DNA from: Escherichia phage vB_EcoM_G2540
Sequence record: MK327936.1
Direction: 5' to 3' (one strand)
Length of the DNA stretch: 64,000 nucleotides
The translations under genes and the position numbers were made by a program. A model generated the notes under the pieces. It had not been told where the DNA came from, made no database searches, and saw only the letters and a program-made list of their open reading frames with translations. Below are positions 31,063 to 56,392 of this stretch, one piece after another (within the stretch, counting starts at the first letter, position 1; every line of letters starts with the position of its first letter).

Positions 31063-31650
31063 TTATTCTTTAAATCTAATCAATTTATTCATAGACTTTG
31101 AAACTTCTGCACGAACCTCATGTAAGTTTTTAAGCTGTTCAAGACGCTGCTCATAGTAAGCAATTTCATCTTCTTCGAGACAGTCCTGTGAATCTTCTTT
31201 AAGATAACGTGCATAGTCCTGAAAAGCTTTACGGACTACTTCCTGGAAGTCATCAAGACTTTGAATTTTCTTAGGAGCGGCAGATACACGACGAGGTGCA
31301 GTATAATACTCATAACCAAACCCTGCACTTAATTGAGCCATTAGTATTTTTCCTCTGGTTGGAATATCGCTGATGTCAGGAACTTCAGTATCTTTTATAC
31401 TAAACCCACGTTTTAAGCATTCCGTTATAATGTCTGATTGACGCTTTCGCAAAAATTCTAACTTATCGTAAAAGAACGTAACATGACCAGAGCCTAAAAT
31501 AAACTCGGAAGATATTTTAAAATCTTTAACCCGCTTACCATTTGCCACATGTTTACGAACTATACCAAAAACACGCGGCAATTCACGATACTCAGCCATA
31601 AGATGTTGGTCGGTCAGTTCAGAAACAAGTGTTAAATTGATACGAGTCAT
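31063..31650 (-). CDS. denV: Endonuclease V (pyrimidine-dimer glycosylase) homolog with extended divergent C-terminus
   Basis: [12 protein letters not shown]...[13 protein letters not shown] matches recalled T4 EndoV for about 100 aa; then diverges and continues to 195 aa. Confidence 0.7.
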
Positions 31651-31687
31651 AATTTCCTCCAAGTAGTTGATGAATGTATAGTATCAA

Positions 31688-31708: not shown

Positions 31709-31717
<9 letters not shown>
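31688..31717 (-). promoter_or_regulatory. T4-type early promoter upstream of denV
   Basis: GTTTACT-17-TACTAT then ACATTCATCAACTAC leader and GGAGGA. Confidence 0.55.
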
Positions 31718-32511
<794 letters not shown>

Positions 32512-33808: not shown

Positions 33809-34182
33809 CGTGATTCCTTAACAAATTTCATAATTTCATCAAATTCATACGCAGCAAGTTTAAGCTGGTGTTCCTTTTTAATCTTTTCACACTGTGCTTT
33901 CCAATCACGTACGCGTTTACGATAATGTCTTCCTTGATACCAGTATCCTACCCAATTTACAGGTACTAATAAAAGTGGAACTATTAATGGAAGAATTAGC
34001 ATTAATACAAGTATTTCGCCAGAATCAATATCAGTCATAACATCTAAAACACCTCCAATAATCAATAGAATTACAAATGATATGAGTATAACAGGACCTA
34101 TTAATACATCAGTAGAAATTATCTGACGCTTTAATTCATACTTTAAGGGTTTACTTGGAAGATACATTGATGGCTTTGACAT
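33790..34182 (-). CDS. Two-TM membrane protein (tandem array member)
   Basis: 130 aa; two hydrophobic helices; C-terminal FVKESRCK. Confidence 0.45.
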   Translation of the reverse strand: MSKPSMYLPSKPLKYELKRQIISTDVLIGPVILISFVILLIIGGVLDVMTDIDSGEILVLMLILPLIVPLLLVPVNWVGYWYQGRHYRKRVRDWKAQCEKIKKEHQLKLAAYEFDEIMKFVKESRCKSQN

Positions 34183-34756
34183 ATTCTCTGCATTCCTTCA
34201 CAAATTTTTCTAGTAATAAATCGCTTTCAAAATTGGGATTTTCCACGAATTTATCAAAAAGATCATCAACAATAGTTAAGATATTCTTTTTACTAAGAAT
34301 ACGTTTATTTTCATGCTTCGTTTCAGAATCAACTATAAGAGTAAAGAAATATTTCTTTCCCTGAAATTTTACCGTAGTATCAATATAAAATAAATTTGAC
34401 TTTTGTAAATTACGTTTAAACCATGCGTCACTTAAACTATAAACGCCAAGATAATCATAATCGTCGTTTAAATAACAAACTGTCCATTCAGGAGAAATGA
34501 AATCAGTAAATTCAACATCAAAATCACACGTCAATGAATGAATTGATTCAATGCTTTTAATGAGTATTCCAGGACGTATTAAAGACTTTTTACCTTTATA
34601 AAATCCAGAAAGACTTTCATCAGTTTCATATGAAGACCCCCAATAGTAATTACGTCCTTCTGCCATACGTTTAAGAGCATTTAGTAATTGATCTGGAACA
34701 TCAACCTGTCTTTGGAACTCTTCAAACATTGAATTGAAATCACTTTGCATTTTCAT
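34151..34756 (-). CDS. Hypothetical soluble protein upstream of the membrane-protein array
   Basis: 201 aa; C-terminal FVKECREY; 32-nt overlap with next gene. Confidence 0.45.
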   Translation of the reverse strand: MKMQSDFNSMFEEFQRQVDVPDQLLNALKRMAEGRNYYWGSSYETDESLSGFYKGKKSLIRPGILIKSIESIHSLTCDFDVEFTDFISPEWTVCYLNDDYDYLGVYSLSDAWFKRNLQKSNLFYIDTTVKFQGKKYFFTLIVDSETKHENKRILSKKNILTIVDDLFDKFVENPNFESDLLLEKFVKECREYVKAINVSSK

Positions 34757-34776
34757 TCCTATTTACTCCAAGTAAT

Positions 34777-34792
34777 AGGGGCCGAAGCCCCT
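34777..34792 (-). terminator. Putative hairpin terminator (AGGGGC-TTCG-GCCCCT)
   Basis: Perfect stem with tetraloop; weak T-run. Confidence 0.35.
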
Positions 34793-34797
34793 TATCA

Positions 34798-35391
34798 TTA
34801 TTTCAGAGAATTAATGTATTCCTGAACATCGGCAGAGGTAGTTTCAACCCCAGAAATATTGCCATTAAAGGTTTCAACTCGAGCAAGAGTATCTTCAATA
34901 TCAACCTTAGTCAGTGCTGCAATTTCAACTACATCATCAGCAGTACTAATTCCGAGGGCATTCGCAGCACGAGTTTCACGGATATATTCCAATTTAACTG
35001 CAAGTTCTTGGCGAGCATCATCTAACTCAACTACTTTCTTGGCGATTTCAATTCGCATTTCAGCATAACCATCAGCTTTAGTAGTCAACTGCTCAGCTGT
35101 TCGACGATATAGTAAACCAAGTTTAGCATGCATTGTTACATCTTGACCTTCGGAAAGAAGCTTGCGAATTTCGCGCTCTTTTGATTCGGCTTGTCGATTC
35201 TTTTCGACAATAAGTTCACGAATACGTTTTTCTTCATTAATAGATTTAACGGAAGCAGTTTTTAGGTCTTTAATCTTATCAAGTAGTTTTGCTGCCGCAG
35301 CGGTATACTGCTCTTCAACAGATAGATTTTTAGCCATAGCAGAACCAAGTTTAGTGCGAATAAACTCAACAATTTTCTTCAGTGTGTTCAT
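34798..35391 (-). CDS. Coiled-coil protein
   Basis: 197 aa, predominantly helical/charged heptad-like sequence. Confidence 0.4.
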
Positions 35392-35434
35392 AGTATTTCC
35401 TTAGGTTAATTAAGATTTAAAATCCACGAGAGTA

Positions 35435-35611
35435 TTATACTCCGGATAGTTTGTAAACTATTTCAACATCGCCTTTTGCTGCTTTATAACCTTCAGCCCA
35501 AGATACAACCGAGTTTTTATCTGAAGATTCAAATTCTGGCATTGGGCTTTCGCCAATGTTCACGCAGTATGTTTCTTCATTTTCGTCAAACCAAATAATT
35601 AAAGTAGTCAT
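35435..35611 (-). CDS. Small ORF below the ORF-track cutoff
   Basis: My translation gives MTTLIIWFDENEETYCVNIGESPMPEF..., 58 aa, ATG at 35611. Confidence 0.3.
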   Translation of the reverse strand: MTTLIIWFDENEETYCVNIGESPMPEFESSDKNSVVSWAEGYKAAKGDVEIVYKLSGV

Positions 35612-35680
35612 TTATTTCTCCGTTTTCTGTATTTGTTTTGATAAGTCTATAATAACACCGTCCTTGGTATTTGTACACAA

Positions 35681-35956
35681 TTATTTCATATTATTGAAAT
35701 ATTCTTCTGCGATTTCATCGTTATCATGGTAAACTTTAGAAGACAGTTTAACATAACCTTCAGCAGTGAACATGTTAATCACAACCTTTACAGTATACCA
35801 CTGACCGTCTTCATTACCCATTACTGCATAAGTTTCAAACATCGGATGGTCAGGACCGATAACTTTAATATCATTCACTGTACGACCAAAATCTTCTGAA
35901 ACACATTTCATAAAGAAGTTGAACAGTTCGCCGTAATTATCCATTTCATTCTCCAA
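35681..35956 (-). CDS. Hypothetical small protein
   Basis: 91-aa ORF directly after early promoter 35988..36017. Confidence 0.4.
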   Translation of the reverse strand: MENEMDNYGELFNFFMKCVSEDFGRTVNDIKVIGPDHPMFETYAVMGNEDGQWYTVKVVINMFTAEGYVKLSSKVYHDNDEIAEEYFNNMK

Positions 35957-35987
35957 GTTGTTTTCTGTATCAGTAGTTGATAGTTGT

Positions 35988-36017
35988 ATAGTACCATGGA
36001 AGAACAGGGATGTAAAC
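35988..36017 (-). promoter_or_regulatory. T4-type early promoter
   Basis: TTTTTTCACAAAACTGTTTACA-17-TACTAT-ACAACTATCAACTAC. Confidence 0.6.
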
Positions 36018-36150
36018 AGTTTTGTGAAAAAATTTTAAAAAGTTTTGGGGAATTCTAGGGCAGGGAGGGGCAATTAAAGGATAGGATAATATATTATAAA
36101 GGGTAGAAACTAAATGATGCCTAGAGAGGCCCGGAAAGGCCTAGATACCA

Positions 36151-36180
36151 AAAAGCCCCAACCTTTCGGTCGGGGCTAAG
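36151..36180 (-). terminator. Rho-independent terminator (copy 1 of identical 30-bp element)
   Basis: Minus strand AGCCCCGACC-GAAA-GGTTGGGGCT followed by TTTT; downstream of internal-protein gene. Confidence 0.7.
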
Positions 36181-36184
36181 AATG

Positions 36185-36658
36185 TTATTTGATTTGTTTA
36201 GCAGACCAAATGCGGTCTTTAATAATTTTTTGAATGTCTTCAACATACTCTAGGTCATGAGCATGTGGATTATCTTTGAAACTATGAGCTCGCGCAAGTT
36301 TCTGGCCTTCGGTCTTAATTATCAAAAGTTCTTTAAGAATTGCTTCATACCTGGAGATAATTCCTTTAGCAATATTTTTTTCTTGTGCTGCTTTAGTGTC
36401 AGCCTTAGGAGCAGGTTTACCTGAAGCCTTTGCAAAAGCAGCTCCAGTAGCAACTAAACTTTTCCAAGCCATACTAACTGCATTCCCTGTAAATCCTTCG
36501 GCTTTCATATCACGAGCAAATTGGAATCGTGATTCATCGGAAGCATCTTTATAGGAATATTTACCCGCGGCAATGGCAGCTTTTGCGACAGCTTGAATTT
36601 CGGTGCTAGATGCTTCATTTAACACCGCTTCATTTAAAAATTGAGCATATGATTTCAT
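36185..36658 (-). CDS. Internal-protein-like protein with capsid-targeting N-terminus
   Basis: 157 aa; starts MKSYAQFLNE like T4 IP targeting peptides; Ala/Lys-rich; late promoter TATAAATA upstream; flanked by identical terminators. Confidence 0.55.
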   Translation of the reverse strand: MKSYAQFLNEAVLNEASSTEIQAVAKAAIAAGKYSYKDASDESRFQFARDMKAEGFTGNAVSMAWKSLVATGAAFAKASGKPAPKADTKAAQEKNIAKGIISRYEAILKELLIIKTEGQKLARAHSFKDNPHAHDLEYVEDIQKIIKDRIWSAKQIK

Positions 36659-36694
36659 CTTATTTCCTGTTTTAATTCGTGGTTTTAATATACT

Positions 36695-36702
36695 TATTTA
36701 TA
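36695..36702 (-). promoter_or_regulatory. Late promoter (TATAAATA) for internal-protein gene
   Basis: Reverse complement of tatttata about 30 nt upstream of ATG 36658. Confidence 0.5.
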
Positions 36703-36705
36703 CTA

Positions 36706-36735
36706 AAAAGCCCCAACCTTTCGGTCGGGGCTAAG
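36706..36735 (-). terminator. Rho-independent terminator (copy 2) ending the tRNA operon
   Basis: 30 bp identical to 36151..36180; hairpin plus T-run on minus strand. Confidence 0.7.
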
Positions 36736-36784
36736 CCTTGCGGCAACCTTGTTGGGGTTCCACCTGCTAAGGCAAGTGTTTGTA

Positions 36785-36940
36785 CGAAACGCCGGGATTC
36801 GAACCCGGTTATTAAGTAGTTGACGCTACTCAATATTTTTAAAAGGCCATATCTCGACCATATCCGAACGTTCCGTCAAAAACGCTACTCGGCTTACGGC
36901 AAAGATATTTCCTCGAATCGATAATTCGGTGCGCCGTTTC
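36785..36940 (-). ncRNA. Putative stable tRNA-like RNA (T4 species-1/2-type)
   Basis: T-arm-like CCGGG-TTCGAAT-CCCGG and a 6-bp terminal pairing but no complete cloverleaf; within the tRNA operon before the terminator. Confidence 0.3.
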
Positions 36941-36944
36941 TGCT

Positions 36945-37043
36945 GTGATAGTAAAGAATCAGAACACAGTAAAACTGTGGGAGAAACTATACTCCAGGGA
37001 ACATCAGTCCGACGACTTACCGGTAGCGACCCGGTTTCTTGTC
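36945..37043 (-). ncRNA. Putative second stable RNA between tRNA-Arg and the tRNA-like RNA
   Basis: Non-coding interval inside tRNA operon; T4 encodes two stable RNAs here; boundaries approximate. Confidence 0.25.
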
Positions 37044-37119
37044 TGGTCGAGGCAGTAGGGATCGAACCTACGACCCAGGACTTAGAAGGTCCTTGCTCTT
37101 CCTTCTGAGCTATGCCCCG
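37044..37119 (-). tRNA. tRNA-Arg (anticodon TCT), CCA encoded
   Basis: Manual fold: acceptor CGGGGCA/TGCCTCG, D-arm GCTC..GAGC, anticodon loop CTTCTAA, T-arm GTAGG-TTCGATC-CCTAC. Confidence 0.75.
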
Positions 37120-37122
37120 TAA

Positions 37123-37788
37123 TTAAAATTTCATTTTTCGACCTTTAAACCATCCTTCTGGAATTGGGTCAGTTTTCTTAATAAGTTTAGAAACTTTTTC
37201 ATCTAATGAATGAATCCACATCATACCAAATTGGGAATTCTTTTCGCCTTGTTGGTGTTTATTTCTGGCGTGAGATTCTTTCATTTTATTAATAGTTTCA
37301 AGAGTATGGGTCTTACCCAAGAAAGATTTAGTATTTAAAAATTTCTCTCTATACTTAGGATTATCCCAAAGCTGTTTAAACCTTTCTGAACCCATTTTAC
37401 GATATTTTTCTTTAAGGTCTGGGTCGTTCTCAAATCTGGTTTTAAAAGCGGCAGCTCCTTTTAAGGAAGCTTCTTTCTTTTTATCCAAATATTCTTTAGT
37501 GTTTAAATGGTCCCAACCACCTTCACCACCTAATTTCAAATTATAAACATCAGGGCGCTTTAAAAACTCTTCAGTCACAATATTCTTTTCTGACTCAAAC
37601 ATAGAGGTTTTATCGTCAAAGAACTCTAATATTTCTTTAGAAAAATTTTCTATACCATACTTATCTTGGGCTCTTTTTAATAATTTACCAGAACCCATAT
37701 ATCCATCATCTAAATTTTCGGTAGAATGCACACCAATATAAATTTTATTATTAATTTTATTTGTTATTTTATAAGTGTAATGGAACAT
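37123..37788 (-). CDS. segB: GIY-YIG homing endonuclease SegB
   Basis: 221 aa; YTYKITNKINNKIYIGVHS GIY-YIG motif; embedded in tRNA cluster as in T4. Confidence 0.8.
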   Translation of the reverse strand: MFHYTYKITNKINNKIYIGVHSTENLDDGYMGSGKLLKRAQDKYGIENFSKEILEFFDDKTSMFESEKNIVTEEFLKRPDVYNLKLGGEGGWDHLNTKEYLDKKKEASLKGAAAFKTRFENDPDLKEKYRKMGSERFKQLWDNPKYREKFLNTKSFLGKTHTLETINKMKESHARNKHQQGEKNSQFGMMWIHSLDEKVSKLIKKTDPIPEGWFKGRKMKF

Positions 37789-37829
37789 AAATATCTCCTA
37801 TTTCTAAGAGTATTTATGTTCCCAAAATA

Positions 37830-37901
37830 TGGCCCTGGGTGGAATTGAACCACCATCTGGCGATTATGAGTCGCTTGCTTGAACCTTCCAGCTACAGGGC
37901 C
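37830..37901 (-). tRNA. tRNA with CAT anticodon (T4 tRNA-Ile-type; Ile via lysidine, or Met)
   Basis: Manual fold: acceptor GGCCCTG/CAGGGCC, anticodon loop CTCATAA, T-arm GGTGG-TTCAATT-CCACC. Confidence 0.75.
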
Positions 37902-37907
37902 TTGATA

Positions 37908-37980
37908 TGCTGATTGACGGAATCGAACCGCCGACATCCTCATTACAAGTGAGTTGCTCTACCTACTGAGCTAAATCAGC
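37908..37980 (-). tRNA. tRNA-Thr (TGT)
   Basis: Manual fold: acceptor GCTGATT/AATCAGC, D-arm GCTC-AGTAGGTA-GAGC, anticodon loop CTTGTAA, T-arm GGCGG-TTCGATT-CCGTC. Confidence 0.8.
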
Positions 37981-37987
37981 GAAATTA

Positions 37988-38074
37988 CGGAGGCGATAGG
38001 ATTTGAACCTATGAGTCGCCGGAGCGACTGCCGGTTTTCAAGACCGGTGCATTAAACCACTCTGCCACGCCTCC
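37988..38074 (-). tRNA. tRNA-Ser (TGA), long variable arm
   Basis: Manual fold: acceptor GGAGGCG/CGCCTCC, anticodon loop CTTGAAA, long variable arm, T-arm ATAGG-TTCAAAT-CCTAT. Confidence 0.8.
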
Positions 38075-38076
38075 AG

Positions 38077-38150
38077 TCTCCATACAAGGATTTGAACCTT
38101 GGACCTCCTGATCCCAAATCAGGCGCTCTACCAAACTGAGCTACACGGAG
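38077..38150 (-). tRNA. tRNA-Pro (TGG)
   Basis: Manual fold: D-arm GCTC-AGTTTGGTA-GAGC, anticodon stem CCTGA/TCAGG loop TTTGGGA, T-arm CAAGG-TTCAAAT-CCTTG. Confidence 0.8.
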
Positions 38151-38162
38151 TAAATTAAATTT

Positions 38163-38234
<72 letters not shown>

Positions 38235-38240
38235 AAACTT

Positions 38241-38327
38241 TGGTACGAGAAGTGGGACTCGAACCCACAAGGAAATCATTCCGCAGCATTTTAAGTGCTG
38301 TGCCTTTACCAATTTGACCATTCTCGC
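38241..38327 (-). tRNA. tRNA-Leu (TAA), long variable arm, CCA encoded
   Basis: Manual fold: acceptor GCGAGAA/TTCTCGT, anticodon stem CAGCA/TGCTG loop CTTAAAA, T-arm GTGGG-TTCGAGT-CCCAC. Confidence 0.8.
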
Positions 38328-38328
38328 G

Positions 38329-38401
38329 CTGGGAATAAAGGACTCGAACCTTTGCATCTAGCAGTCAAAGTGCTATGCCTTACCAACTTGGCTAATTCCC
38401 A
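38329..38401 (-). tRNA. tRNA-Gln (TTG)
   Basis: Manual fold: acceptor TGGGAAT/ATTCCCA, anticodon stem TAGCA/TGCTA loop CTTTGAC, T-arm AAAGG-TTCGAGT-CCTTT. Confidence 0.8.
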
Positions 38402-38487
38402 ATTATTAACAAAGGCTCTCAAACAAGAACCCTTGATGATAGAGGGTATTAATCAGTGCGGTATGAGTTAATAATAACAAATAATTC

Positions 38488-39003
38488 TTAAAGCAAATTA
38501 AACATTTTAACAGTCGGCAAAACAATTTCTTTTTCTATATAAGAGTATTTAACACTCTCAACTACACGCAGAAAATCATAATCATAATATTCAGAAGCAC
38601 TGCCTAAAATATTAATAAGTCCTTCAAACACTTTATTACCATTCACAAAGAATAAGTCAAATACACGTTCTTCATCTTCTTCAGATTTATTACCAAGGTC
38701 AACTTCTATATCAAAGACCTTTTTAATGAATTCTGGATAAAGCTGGTCTGAGAACAGTCCTTCAACCAAGTATTCATAAATAAAAAGCGATTGCTCGCTG
38801 AACAAGCCATTACCACAATAACGTTCAACTTTTGTGCTAGAATGTCTGCTTTTAAACTTCTTTAAAAGATATTGGAATTGTAAGATTTCATGCTCTTCTA
38901 CACCAAACAGTGTTTTAGTTTTATAGTTGTCACCATCATTTTCCCAGGTAGTGACATCAATTACGTAACCCTGCGGAATTGTAGTACCTAAACAAATATT
39001 CAT
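38488..39003 (-). CDS. Hypothetical protein
   Basis: 171-aa ORF upstream of the tRNA cluster. Confidence 0.45.
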   Translation of the reverse strand: MNICLGTTIPQGYVIDVTTWENDGDNYKTKTLFGVEEHEILQFQYLLKKFKSRHSSTKVERYCGNGLFSEQSLFIYEYLVEGLFSDQLYPEFIKKVFDIEVDLGNKSEEDEERVFDLFFVNGNKVFEGLINILGSASEYYDYDFLRVVESVKYSYIEKEIVLPTVKMFNLL

Positions 39004-39293
39004 TTACTCACCATATTAATGTAAGTATATTCAATACATTCAAGACCCAAAGGATTCTTGAAAATATCATATTCAAGAGGACCTTTTTCTGTTTCAATAA
39101 AGAAATCAAAATTTACTGTATTAAATTTACGGTCTTCCTTCAATAATTTAACTTGAGAAGATGAACGGTCAACATAAACCTTTTCAACTTCAAAACATGT
39201 TAAAACGCCATAATCATCAATCAAGGCTTTAGCCGCGTCTTGATCATATTTATATCCATTTTCAATGGACGATACTTTAGCATAAAGAATCAT
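39000..39293 (-). CDS. Hypothetical protein
   Basis: 97-aa ORF; ATGA overlap with downstream gene. Confidence 0.4.
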   Translation of the reverse strand: MILYAKVSSIENGYKYDQDAAKALIDDYGVLTCFEVEKVYVDRSSSQVKLLKEDRKFNTVNFDFFIETEKGPLEYDIFKNPLGLECIEYTYINMVSK

Positions 39294-39296
39294 TAT

Positions 39297-39716
39297 TTAC
39301 CCTTCATCAACAATAGTATGAGTGTGGGCATTTACAATTTGCCACCAATCAAAGCGATTAGAACCATACATTGGGTTGTTCTCATTTTCTTTGATAATGT
39401 CACGGAGTTCATCTTCGGTAGCGGCTTTCGCGATTAAATCAGCATATCCACCGCGAGGATAATAATTATCACCTGCAAAAAGTAAAAAGTTCGGTTTAAT
39501 ATTATTGAACTCTTCAAGAGTAATAACTTTTCCTGTCGGTTGAACAATCTCTACATATTTATATCCTAATTTTTGAGCAGCATCTACTGCTTCAAGCAAA
39601 GTATCATGAGCCCATCCAATTTGACAACCTGGCTTTTCAGATGGATTAGCCTGATAATCCGCGTACACTTTATACATTCTATTCACCTTTAGAAATTTTA
39701 TCCATAACGATAGCAA
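39297..39716 (-). CDS. Hypothetical protein (start may be internal Met at 39674)
   Basis: 139-aa ORF track; N-terminus overlaps the upstream small ORF. Confidence 0.4.
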   Translation of the reverse strand: MLSLWIKFLKVNRMYKVYADYQANPSEKPGCQIGWAHDTLLEAVDAAQKLGYKYVEIVQPTGKVITLEEFNNIKPNFLLFAGDNYYPRGGYADLIAKAATEDELRDIIKENENNPMYGSNRFDWWQIVNAHTHTIVDEG

Positions 39717-39864
39717 TTAAACCAATTAAAAATGCTACTACAAGTGAAAAAACATTTTCTGCTGTAGTTAATAATCCGCATATAAATCCAACAAACATTG
39801 AAAAACTAAAAGCGGAAGCAGAAATTGCAATAGCAACATTTCGAATTAATTCACAGCGTTTCAT
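39679..39864 (-). CDS. Small membrane protein
   Basis: 61 aa; two hydrophobic segments; GAGGAG Shine-Dalgarno after early promoter. Confidence 0.4.
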   Translation of the reverse strand: MKRCELIRNVAIAISASAFSFSMFVGFICGLLTTAENVFSLVVAFLIGLIAIVMDKISKGE

Positions 39865-39892
39865 TTTATTCTCCTCAGTAGTTGATAGGGTA

Positions 39893-39922
39893 ATAGTATC
39901 ACAACTAAAACCCTATGTAAAC
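39893..39922 (-). promoter_or_regulatory. T4-type early promoter
   Basis: TTTTTCACAAAGTTGTTTACA-17-TACTAT. Confidence 0.6.
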
Positions 39923-39940
39923 AACTTTGTGAAAAATTTA

Positions 39941-40225
39941 TTACAAAAGATTTTTTGCAATAATTTTAAGCTGAGCTACTGAAATATGCTTGGCTTTAAA
40001 CAAAGCAGTTTCTTCAGCAGGGGAGATAACGATTGTAGCACCATCTTTCTTAGCGGACCATCCATCACCCAGGTAAACAGTACCTTTGACTTCTTCGCCA
40101 TCAACCAGGCTAATCATCGGTTTACCTTCACGTCCTTTGTTTGCTTTAATAACTTCAGAAGTAAGGGTCGCTTCAGTCAAAGTAGAAGCGTTAGTCGTTG
40201 AAGTGAATTCTTGATAAGTTTTCAT
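39941..40225 (-). CDS. ipI: Internal protein I (IPI-like; capsid-packaged anti-restriction protein)
   Basis: 94 aa; starts MKTYQEF (IP capsid-targeting peptide); own early promoter; T4 ipI position before 57B. Confidence 0.65.
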   Translation of the reverse strand: MKTYQEFTSTTNASTLTEATLTSEVIKANKGREGKPMISLVDGEEVKGTVYLGDGWSAKKDGATIVISPAEETALFKAKHISVAQLKIIAKNLL

Positions 40226-40260
40226 TTTATTTTCCTAAATTAATAAATGTGTTGATGGAG

Positions 40261-40290
40261 ATAATATCACTTCTCCATCGTCGTGTAAAC
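40261..40290 (-). promoter_or_regulatory. T4-type early promoter upstream of ipI
   Basis: TTTCACAAAGTTGTTTACA-17-TATTAT. Confidence 0.6.
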
Positions 40291-40302
40291 AACTTTGTGA
40301 AA

Positions 40303-40999
<697 letters not shown>

Positions 41000-41000
<1 letters not shown>

Positions 41001-41725
41001 TATAGTACCTTTAGTGTATTTTTAATTTTAGAAAAAAGTTCTTCAAGAGAACCATCGTTTGTAATTACTAAATCGCCATCACGAATTGGCAATCCAGCTT
41101 CTGTAATATGAGTATCATTGGATTTTTGACCAGGACGAACTACATGAATTACTGTAGCACCCATCGCCCTAGCCGCATCCATTTCATGATCTTGACGAGT
41201 ATCAGGAACGATATAATAATCATAACCTGAGTTAAATTTATCAAGATAATCTAAAGCAAATAATTTTACCCAGTACATGCGGTCGAAGTTATTAACAATC
41301 AAATCCGTACCTAGGGCTTGCATCAGACGACGGACTGACCATTGATCTTCAATATTATTTATAACGTCAATAATCTTGTTAAATGCTACGGAATTAACTG
41401 ATTCTTGTCCTTCGTCATCAAAAACAAACACACCCTTAATTGGGCTTTTACCGTTAAGATAGCAAAATGCTTGTTCCATAATCGTGATTACTTCTGATTT
41501 AGTCAGATTTAAATTAGTCTCACGATCATAGTCAATTCCTTCAAACTCTTTACGAGTTAAGCAAGGATAGTCAGTGTTTGCTGCAAATACTCCCCATGCA
41601 TAAGCCAATGCATCCTTAATAGGACCAGCAAGTTGGTATTTAACTGCAGAATAATTGCTCATGATAAAATCAGCAGTAGTATCTTTTCCACTACGCTTTA
41701 CACCGCTTAAAAAGATTAGTTTCAT
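41000..41725 (-). CDS. 1: Deoxynucleoside monophosphate kinase gp1
   Basis: 241 aa from MKLIFLSGVKRSGKDTTADF (P-loop); ORF-track N-extension trimmed. Confidence 0.9.
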
Positions 41726-41774
41726 GTGTTTCTCCTCAAATTTAATTAAGATTATAACACACAAAACTGAAGCA

Positions 41775-42305
41775 TTAAACTTCTGCTATAATTTTGCCAT
41801 CTTTTTCTACTTGAAAATACGTATAAGGAATCGTAGCTGTACATACTAAAGCCGGGTCTGAATCTTCCGTATAGCTAAATTCTACTTCAGATAGGTCAGA
41901 AACCCAAGGCTTATAAAAATTTATTGACATCACGATTTCAGTTTTGCTATTATCTAAGATGTAAAGCGTAATGTATTCAGGACCTGTTTTTTGGGCAGTA
42001 TTTTCACCTGTAAGATAGTTGCTAGTTCCTAGCATCCATTCATACATTCCTATCCATGATTTAAGTTCTTCATCAACTATAAATCTCACAATGAGTGGAT
42101 CATACTCGAATGTAACACCTGGACGTTGTGCTCGGCCCAGTCCAAACGGCCCAGTCACGGTATCAGTAACAGGTATTCTAATTCCTGGAATAGGAACTGA
42201 CTGAGCATTTAAAGTAAAAGCAGATGTAGTATTACTATGTGGTATTGATACTACAAAGTTAGTTGTATTTGCTTGGTTAAAAATTTGTTGCAGAGCTTGC
42301 GACAT
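41775..42305 (-). CDS. 3: Tail tube terminator / sheath stabiliser gp3
   Basis: 176 aa from internal Met MSQALQQIF; T4 gene order 1-3-2-4. Confidence 0.75.
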   Translation of the reverse strand: MSQALQQIFNQANTTNFVVSIPHSNTTSAFTLNAQSVPIPGIRIPVTDTVTGPFGLGRAQRPGVTFEYDPLIVRFIVDEELKSWIGMYEWMLGTSNYLTGENTAQKTGPEYITLYILDNSKTEIVMSINFYKPWVSDLSEVEFSYTEDSDPALVCTATIPYTYFQVEKDGKIIAEV

Positions 42306-55678: not shown

Positions 55679-56392
55679 TGAGTTTACTTAATAATAAAGC
55701 GGGAGTTATTTCCCGCTTAGCAGATTTTCTTGGTTTTAGAACTAAGAAAAATGATATTTCGGTTATGAATAATCAGCCGGTAGGCGCTGTAACAATTTCA
55801 CAAATAGCAAAAGGTTTTTATGACCCAAATGTAGAATCTGCTATCAATGATGTTAGAAATATGGCAGAGCAACAGGTTGGAGCTGTATTAATTTGCTATC
55901 AATGATGTTAGAAATATGGCAGAGCAACAGGTTGGAGCTGTATTAATTAATATAAGCGGCGTATCTCCTACTGGAGTGCAACAAACAGACTATTGGTCAT
56001 TTGAAGGAACTGTTACTGATACTTCAGCCAAACCAGGTGACCCAGTTATTGTTAACATGTTTGGTATTCCAGTTAAAGCTACTAACGGAATGACTTCAAT
56101 TGAATTTACCAGTGCCGTTAGAATAGCTCTACAGGAAATGGTTGCAAAATTTATTGCAATTGATTCATTTGAAGACCATCCTACTATAGGGAATAAAATA
56201 CAAGTTAAGTATTTAGATAACCAAGAACATATCTTAGAGCAATACTCTGATAAAGGAATTACTTTCAAACAAGAAATAATTTCTCCTTCTAAACCTGGAT
56301 ATGGAACTTGGCAATTATTAGGTGCGCAAACTGTCACGTTAGATAGTCACACACAACCTACAGTATTTTATTATTTTGAGAGAATAGCATGA
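55678..56392 (+). pseudogene. 11: Baseplate gene 11 interrupted by a 55-bp tandem duplication (N-fragment 55678..55905, C-fragment ORF 55916..56392)
   Basis: [20 protein letters not shown] start overlapping gene 10 stop; frame breaks after the duplicated segment; removing one copy gives a continuous ORF of about 219 aa. Confidence 0.75.
55839..55948. repeat. Perfect direct tandem duplication, 2 x 55 bp
   Basis: 55839..55893 identical to 55894..55948 by direct comparison; flanking bases differ. Confidence 0.9.

Follow-up and report, generated by a model that had tools for sequence, protein, structure and literature searches.

A late gene with an internal-protein-like start between identical terminator repeats in a T4-like coliphage, and precise empty sites in T4 and other relatives

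Downstream of the tRNA operon of Escherichia phage vB_EcoM_G2540, a late gene whose N-terminus resembles that of T4 internal head proteins lies between two identical copies of a predicted transcription terminator, and the same slot in T4 and four other relatives holds one terminator copy and no gene. The analysis covered a stretch of 64,000 nucleotides of this genome (sequence record MK327936.1), referred to as the window. The gene is called gene A, and the two terminator copies are called R (proximal to the rnaC homologue) and L (distal). The arrangement probably represents an insulated late cassette for an injected protein, which can be lost precisely by way of its terminator repeats and regained in mixed infection.

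The window belongs to a Tequatrovirus, and the cassette region is 92–96% identical to that of many T4-like coliphages. Upstream of the cassette, in the sense of transcription, eight tRNA genes are broken by a segB-like homing-endonuclease ORF (221 aa; 37123-37788, minus strand) that occupies the T4 segB position inside the tRNA cluster; in the closest relatives the corresponding ORF carries the annotation homing endonuclease. They are followed by homologues of rnaD (species 2 RNA; 36928..37039, minus strand; 96 identical bases over 116 of 119 T4 positions) and of rnaC (species 1 RNA; 36783..36921, minus strand; 138 of 139 bases as in T4 rnaC, NC_000866), the last gene of the tRNA operon. The downstream neighbour is a homologue of e.8 (35681..35944, minus strand), with 257 of 264 bases as in T4 e.8. 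Its early promoter (35988..36016, minus strand; TTTACA, 17 nt, TG-TACTAT) carries this annotation in the SA20RB record and is a member of a dispersed early-promoter repeat family (D1, D2 and D4). The cassette lies between the rnaC homologue and this promoter, in agreement with the first-pass annotation, which had placed it between the tRNA operon terminator and the next early transcription unit. A search of 34000-42000 against Rfam (E <= 1) returned tRNAs only, with no family for the repeat, the cassette, rnaC or rnaD.

Two identical 30-bp terminator repeats had been reported at 36151-36180 and 36706-36735. Both were found to be exact, and the exact direct repeat is 1 bp longer than was noted, at 31 bp (36150-36180 and 36705-36735). 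It extends to 36 bp with a single mismatch (97% identity; 36145-36180 and 36700-36735, spacing 555 bp; repeat family D7), and this extended pair is the proposed recombination substrate. The two copies are the only exact matches of the 30-mer in the 64-kb window, where no third match was found at up to three mismatches, and 100 dinucleotide-preserving shuffles gave no match. Given the empty shuffles and the two-copy structure in many independently sequenced phages, it is extremely improbable that the repeat is a product of chance or of assembly.

On the minus strand each copy reads AGCCCCGACC-GAAA-GGTTGGGGCT, followed by TTTTT, and forms a stem of 10 pairs, seven of them G-C. The GAAA-tetraloop hairpin with its T-run, as first described, is thus present in each copy, and its fold is stable by comparison with shuffled sequence: the copies fold at -20 to -25 kcal/mol (z = -3.7 and -4.2), and none of the shuffles folded as well. 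On the transcribed strand, a GC-rich hairpin with a U-run behind it has the form of an intrinsic (rho-independent) terminator, and both copies are predicted to act as such. The sole imperfect pair of the stem is A·C on the plus strand and G·U on the minus strand, as would suit a signal read from the minus strand, where all neighbouring genes lie. Copy R (36705..36735, minus strand; stem 36732..36709, U-run to 36705) is the predicted end of the tRNA-rnaD-rnaC transcript. Copy L (36150..36180, minus strand; stem 36177..36154, U-run to 36150) is the predicted end of the late transcript of gene A, before the e.8 early promoter. The 31-36 bp repeat consists of the hairpin and T-run, and no promoter-like site was found within it. 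A second predicted hairpin (36115-36149, minus strand) directly follows copy L; in T4 it adjoins the single terminator and carries several base changes.

The late promoter and the 157-aa gene that had been described between the copies were both recovered. The T4-type late promoter TATAAATA (36695..36702, minus strand), annotated as such in the SA20RB record, lies 2 nt past the U-run of copy R and ends 36 nt before the ATG of gene A. A putative Shine-Dalgarno element, AGGA (36665..36668, minus strand), is read from the sequence 6 nt before the ATG. Gene A itself (36185..36658, minus strand) is an ORF of 157 aa that starts with the capsid-targeting-like MKSYAQFLNE, continues with AVLNE, and has its stop codon 4 nt from copy L. 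On this layout, the tRNA operon transcript would end at terminator R, and the late RNA polymerase would start at the promoter right after it, read gene A and stop at L, so that the downstream e.8 early promoter would be insulated. Some alleles of gene A are truncated or frameshifted, among them those of Pu-Krd-SF4 (locus L014, 2017-2298), of G28 and of proteins P0006-P0009, as is consistent with a dispensable accessory gene. Protein P0014 (94 aa), from a 2898-bp Logan contig, combines a trna.3-like N-terminal part (cf. window 39297-39716) with the last ~30 residues of gene A, and could reflect either a deletion of the whole tRNA region or an assembly chimera.

Gene A was found by tblastn in 511 phage records, with an identity of at least 80% in 396 of them, 60-80% in 88 and below 60% in 27. 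The 60-80% matches that were examined are Mosigvirus-type alleles, and Klebsiella phages are among the matches listed below 60%. An exact-pattern scan of IMG/VR gave only four loci. A second gene of the same slot, gene B, was found in 165 phage records, with an identity of at least 95% in every one except a single record. A junction-specific BLAST census (at least 80% coverage) was unusable, since the two half-matches of filled genomes merge, and the state of the slot was scored instead in BLAST hits whose flanks are of Tequatrovirus type, sampled at even spacing, together with 25 selected loci that were checked. Four states were found, with counts that are approximate: gene A only (~24 records), genes A and B (~9), empty (~5) and gene B only (~3).

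The empty state, with no gene and a single terminator copy between rnaC and the e.8 promoter, is that of T4, T2, PST, ACG-C40 and Sf24. In T4, flanks with 56 of 60 (left) and 57 of 60 (right) bases identical to the window are joined by one terminator copy. In each of the five empty sites examined, the boundary coincides exactly with the repeat, of which one intact copy is left. The comparison across relatives suggested in the first-pass annotation, cassette present with two terminators or absent with one, therefore came out with two copies in the window and one in each of the five empty phages. That a single copy joins the same flanks in all five agrees with the proposal that the repeats could mediate gain or loss of the gene. 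Recombination or replication slippage between the 31-bp repeats would delete gene A exactly and leave one working terminator, with the repeat itself as the presumed crossover point. Gene A would come back by the same route in reverse or by ordinary crossing-over during mixed infection, and double-strand breaks made in nearby tRNA genes by the SegB-type enzyme may promote the latter. Conversion of the tRNA region along with its flanks under the action of SegB has been documented (PMC2330249), and the segB-like ORF of the window, ~0.4 kb upstream of the proximal terminator and ~1 kb from the distal one, plausibly lies within co-conversion distance of the cassette. In a small sample the presence of segB did not track the state of the slot, and the involvement of SegB is accordingly put forward as an idea.

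The state of the slot does not track flank haplotypes over 200-250 bp. ACG-C40 (empty) and AR1 (gene A) show 0 differences at the variable columns of a 200-bp left-flank alignment, WL-3 (gene B only) shares its left flank with U115 and S2_01 (both genes), and T2 (empty) has almost the same right flank as U115. This lack of linkage implies either that the events recur or that recombination near the junction is frequent. A competing account, which we regard as unlikely, holds that both terminators are simply needed, that a single unrelated event gave rise to the polymorphism, which flank recombination then spreads, and that the repeats are uninvolved. Scrambled flank haplotypes are expected in any case from the free recombination of T-even phages, and an existing polymorphism can spread through flank recombination without any repeats. 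This account is set against the exact endpoints of the five empty sites, each with its intact copy, which are the signature of a repeat-mediated event, and against the occurrence of empty sites on several different flank haplotypes.

Comparison of the two copies across relatives bears on both accounts. Copies R and L are identical in seven of 15 Tequatrovirus-type loci with gene A (the window, ADUt, AR1, U115, S2_01 and two IMG/VR contigs) and differ by 1-3 substitutions in the other eight (SA20RB, sb2, Kha5h, RB51, SYGD1, Pu-Krd-SF4 and two IMG/VR contigs). The outcome named in advance as contrary to repeat-mediated turnover, namely relatives that all carry the gene between two non-identical terminators, was not what these loci showed. 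Copy R is unchanged in 13 of 15 loci, the changed ones being SYGD1 and IMG/VR contig L007, and the single copy of T4 and ACG-C40 is a one-base variant of copy R. Variation falls mostly in copy L (0-3 substitutions); in its common variants, CTAGGG and CTGGGG, G·U pairs preserve the stem of the minus-strand RNA, an argument for selection acting on the hairpin. The CTAGGG form also occurs with the Mosigvirus-type allele in phiE142, and from this the full identity of the copies may have been derived by conversion from the proximal copy. That the repeat is short (31 bp) and imperfect in eight of 15 loci counts in favour of uninvolved repeats; the coexistence of seven loci with identical copies and others with CTAGGG suggests instead that the copies convert one another.

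The arrangement extends beyond the Tequatrovirus-type loci. In Mosigvirus ATK47 a gene A homologue (76% amino-acid identity) lies directly downstream of rnaC and is flanked by two related hairpins (26 nt, 85% identical, loops GAAA and TTAT). In the Klebsiella phage KpV477, a Jiaodavirus, a homologue that is split into two CDSs in the record lies directly downstream of the tRNA cluster, and its two flanking hairpins (locus L012, 2424-2460 and 3035-3064) are unrelated to each other. The upstream one, CCCTGTC-TTCG-GACGGGG, is followed by the GCTTTTTAGTATAAATA junction as in the window, and the junction between hairpin end and late promoter, GGGGCTTTTTAGTATAAATA, is also the same. The tRNA-adjacent homologues in these two genera imply that the order terminator, late promoter, gene A, terminator is old. 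The cassette had been described as inserted; the direction is probably the opposite, as the comparison suggests that gene A is ancestral and the T4 empty site derived. With its endpoints exactly at the direct repeat, the T4 state probably arose by repeat-mediated loss. The unrelated hairpins around the KpV477 gene show that two terminators are needed functionally whether or not they serve mobility, and in this respect they fit the view that the repeats are uninvolved.

Gene B shows that long repeats are not required for turnover of the slot, since its boundaries have only about 10-12 bp (ACYAAAAAGCCC) in common with the A-type terminator. It is absent from the window and lies directly promoter-distal to gene A in many relatives (IME340, locus L009, 753-1439; also loci L005, L006, L008, L010, L013, L020 and L021). 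It codes for 187 aa starting with MKTYAEFLTE, has its own, different terminator, AAAAAGCCCTATCATTTAGATAGGG, and carries a late motif that is only near-consensus (AATAAATA). Both genes belong to PHROG 2280, and their BLASTP similarity is limited to the N-terminus. In phiE142 (locus L015, 1054-1080) the gene B terminator has the usual stem with its 5-nt loop reverse-complemented (ATTTA to TAAAT), the pattern expected from template switching within the hairpin.

The protein predicted from gene A was described in the first-pass annotation as having an internal-protein capsid-targeting start, and its N-terminus indeed matches those of T4 internal proteins. Gene A begins with MKSYAQFLNEA, gene B with MKTYAEFLTEA, and both IPII and IPIII of T4 with MKTYQEFIAEA; T4 IPI starts with MKTFKEFTSTTTPVSTITE, the MKTYQEFIAE start being confined to IPII and IPIII. 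The N-terminal 10 residues of IPIII are enough for entry into the head, and fusions to the capsid-targeting sequence (CTS) bring foreign proteins in; targeting depends mainly on residues 4 and 7, and processing on residues 8 and 10 (PMC9026906). Gene A has Y4 and F7, the targeting positions, as well as L8 and E10, and it contains two candidate gp21 processing motifs (Leu/Ile-x-Glu), L8-N9-E10 and L13-N14-E15. Its residues 1-19 are 58% identical and 95% similar (E = 4e-7) to the start of another protein of the window, a phrog_3499 "internal head protein" of 93 aa, and a six-frame scan of the window found no other ORF that starts with the motif. Distant homologues retain it, including those in which the C-terminal half has been replaced, and the Mosigvirus allele has a minimal 10-residue form, MKSYAEFLTE.

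On this basis the N-terminal MKSYAQFLNE would take the 157-aa precursor into the prohead core, where cleavage by the gp21 protease would follow E10 and/or E15, both within L-N-E motifs, and give a mature N-terminus at A11 (AVLNEASSTEIQ...) or A16 (ASSTEIQAVAK). The predicted mature protein is about 15.5-16 kDa, with a pI of 9.4-9.6 and 13% Lys, and is all-helical. This basic protein of ~16 kDa would remain in the head until it is injected along with the DNA, and by analogy with IPI* it may counter host defence. Packaging and processing of the gene A protein are judged quite likely.

Beyond the N-terminus, alignment of mature gene A with IPI, IPII and IPIII gave no similarity. To our knowledge the known internal proteins are unrelated to one another, so homology in the mature part is a weak criterion for membership. 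Pfam returned nothing significant for gene A, while the window's ipI homologue matches PF11634 at 1e-51. PHROGs gave only phrog_2280, annotated as "unknown function", and a large protein database gave only 14 matches, all of them phage hypothetical proteins; gene A is called hypothetical in every record. An AlphaFold2 model of moderate confidence (pLDDT 76) is all-helical, with two domains and a Lys/Pro-rich linker, and comparison with PDB and BFVD matched only its own homologues. The absence of a fold or family match that gives gene A a function leaves room for another reading, in which it is a late protein neither packaged nor injected, such as an assembly helper or a core component degraded at maturation, and its CTS likeness stems from shuffling of 5' segments. 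A literature search for virion proteomics covering the gene A protein found no report, which also fits this reading. Weighing against it are the sufficiency of 10 IPIII residues for head entry (PMC9026906) together with the retention of all four key positions in gene A, the conservation of the CTS motif across genera even where the C-terminal half is replaced, the late promoter, and the basic character of the protein. We consider a protein that stays out of the mature head quite improbable, and an injected internal protein is the reading retained here.

The slot can be compared with several known systems. According to Repoila et al. 1994, as related in passages of PMC2839356 and PMC3012670, T-even phages have two highly polymorphic internal-protein (IP) loci, whose ORFs share a leader motif and whose flanking reiterated regulatory sequences are thought to mediate shuffling. 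Gene A resembles IPI, IPII and IPIII of T4 in its type of propeptide, its small, basic, Lys-rich product, its late promoter, its dispensability and its polymorphic slot. It differs from them in having no similarity in mature sequence or fold and in a locus that is empty in T4; moreover, its packaging is predicted from its sequence. In the window, the ipI homologue (39941-40225; 94 aa, PF11634, start MKTYQEFTSTTNASTLTE) is bracketed by copies of the early-promoter repeat D1 (39878-39937 and 40246-40305). This is the classical layout of an IP locus, in contrast to the terminator repeats around gene A. At the ipII/ipIII locus between denV and e, a single gene for the 93-aa phrog_3499 protein (31709-31990, minus strand), whose start codon overlaps the end of gene e, replaces T4 ipII and ipIII. 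The adjacent denV homologue (31063-31662, minus strand; 199 aa) is 87% identical over residues 5-101 to residues 1-97 of T4 endonuclease V, and the last 41 T4 residues are replaced by ~98 unrelated ones; it may be chimeric or disrupted. Another repeat of the window, at 55835-55944, is a perfect-register tandem duplication of a 55-nt unit with copies 98% identical.

The shuffling idea was generalised as PeSL cassettes (Arbiol 2010; Comeau 2014), as in RB49, where ORF192 lies between two PeSLs, compared with a single PeSL in phi1. The gene A slot is alike in holding small accessory genes between reiterated regulatory sequences, and in having sister phages with a single element and no gene, here T4, T2, PST, ACG-C40 and Sf24. 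PeSL elements, however, are early promoters with or without weak stem-loops, whereas the gene A repeat is a strong, GC-rich, promoter-less terminator. Instead of the early promoter and stem-loop of a PeSL, the promoter of gene A is the late TATAAATA, which lies outside the repeat and beside one copy only. Lambdoid morons are similar in being single genes with their own promoter and terminator between two undisturbed transcription units, but they differ from gene A, a late lytic gene, in that their expression is typically from the prophage, and they are not thought to move via conserved flanking repeats (PMC2839356).

The flanking repeat of gene A is not new to the record. The same gene occupies the corresponding site in RB51, where it is named RB32ORF132c or RB51ORF140, and the GenBank entry (FJ839693) describes it with the words "flanked by 34 bp imperfect direct repeat". 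Three positions of the distal copy are changed in RB51, whereas the copies in the window are identical over 31 bp, and the RB51 record lists the product as hypothetical with no tie to internal proteins or terminators. What appears to be unrecorded so far is a third internal-protein-like locus, one absent from T4. IP genes have been described as absent elsewhere in T-even genomes (PMC2839356), and the slot between rnaC and e.8, empty in T4, is such an "elsewhere". A broader proposal, to which we attach slightly less than an even chance, is that the gap between rnaC and e.8 constitutes a third IP locus: delimited by terminators, holding zero to two CTS genes (gene A with a canonical late promoter), coding for injected effectors that are plausibly anti-defence, and reshuffled by recombination at the terminators together with SegB co-conversion. 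If correct, this would contradict the published confinement of IP genes to two T-even loci.

The principle behind such a locus is established already, and the value of the present case lies in better annotation and a testable candidate, with no new mechanism. By the accounts in PMC2839356, PMC3012670 and PMC9026906, the dedicated role of IPI* is to inhibit a type IV restriction enzyme. The locus offers a clean natural example of a gene that is exactly removable with the transcription of its neighbours left intact. Injected internal proteins belong to the phage molecules that the host encounters first. Packaging of the gene A and gene B products would mean that several hundred of the T4-like phages sequenced so far carry one or two unannotated injected proteins, and such proteins could help to explain differences in host range that are relevant to the choice of therapeutic phages.
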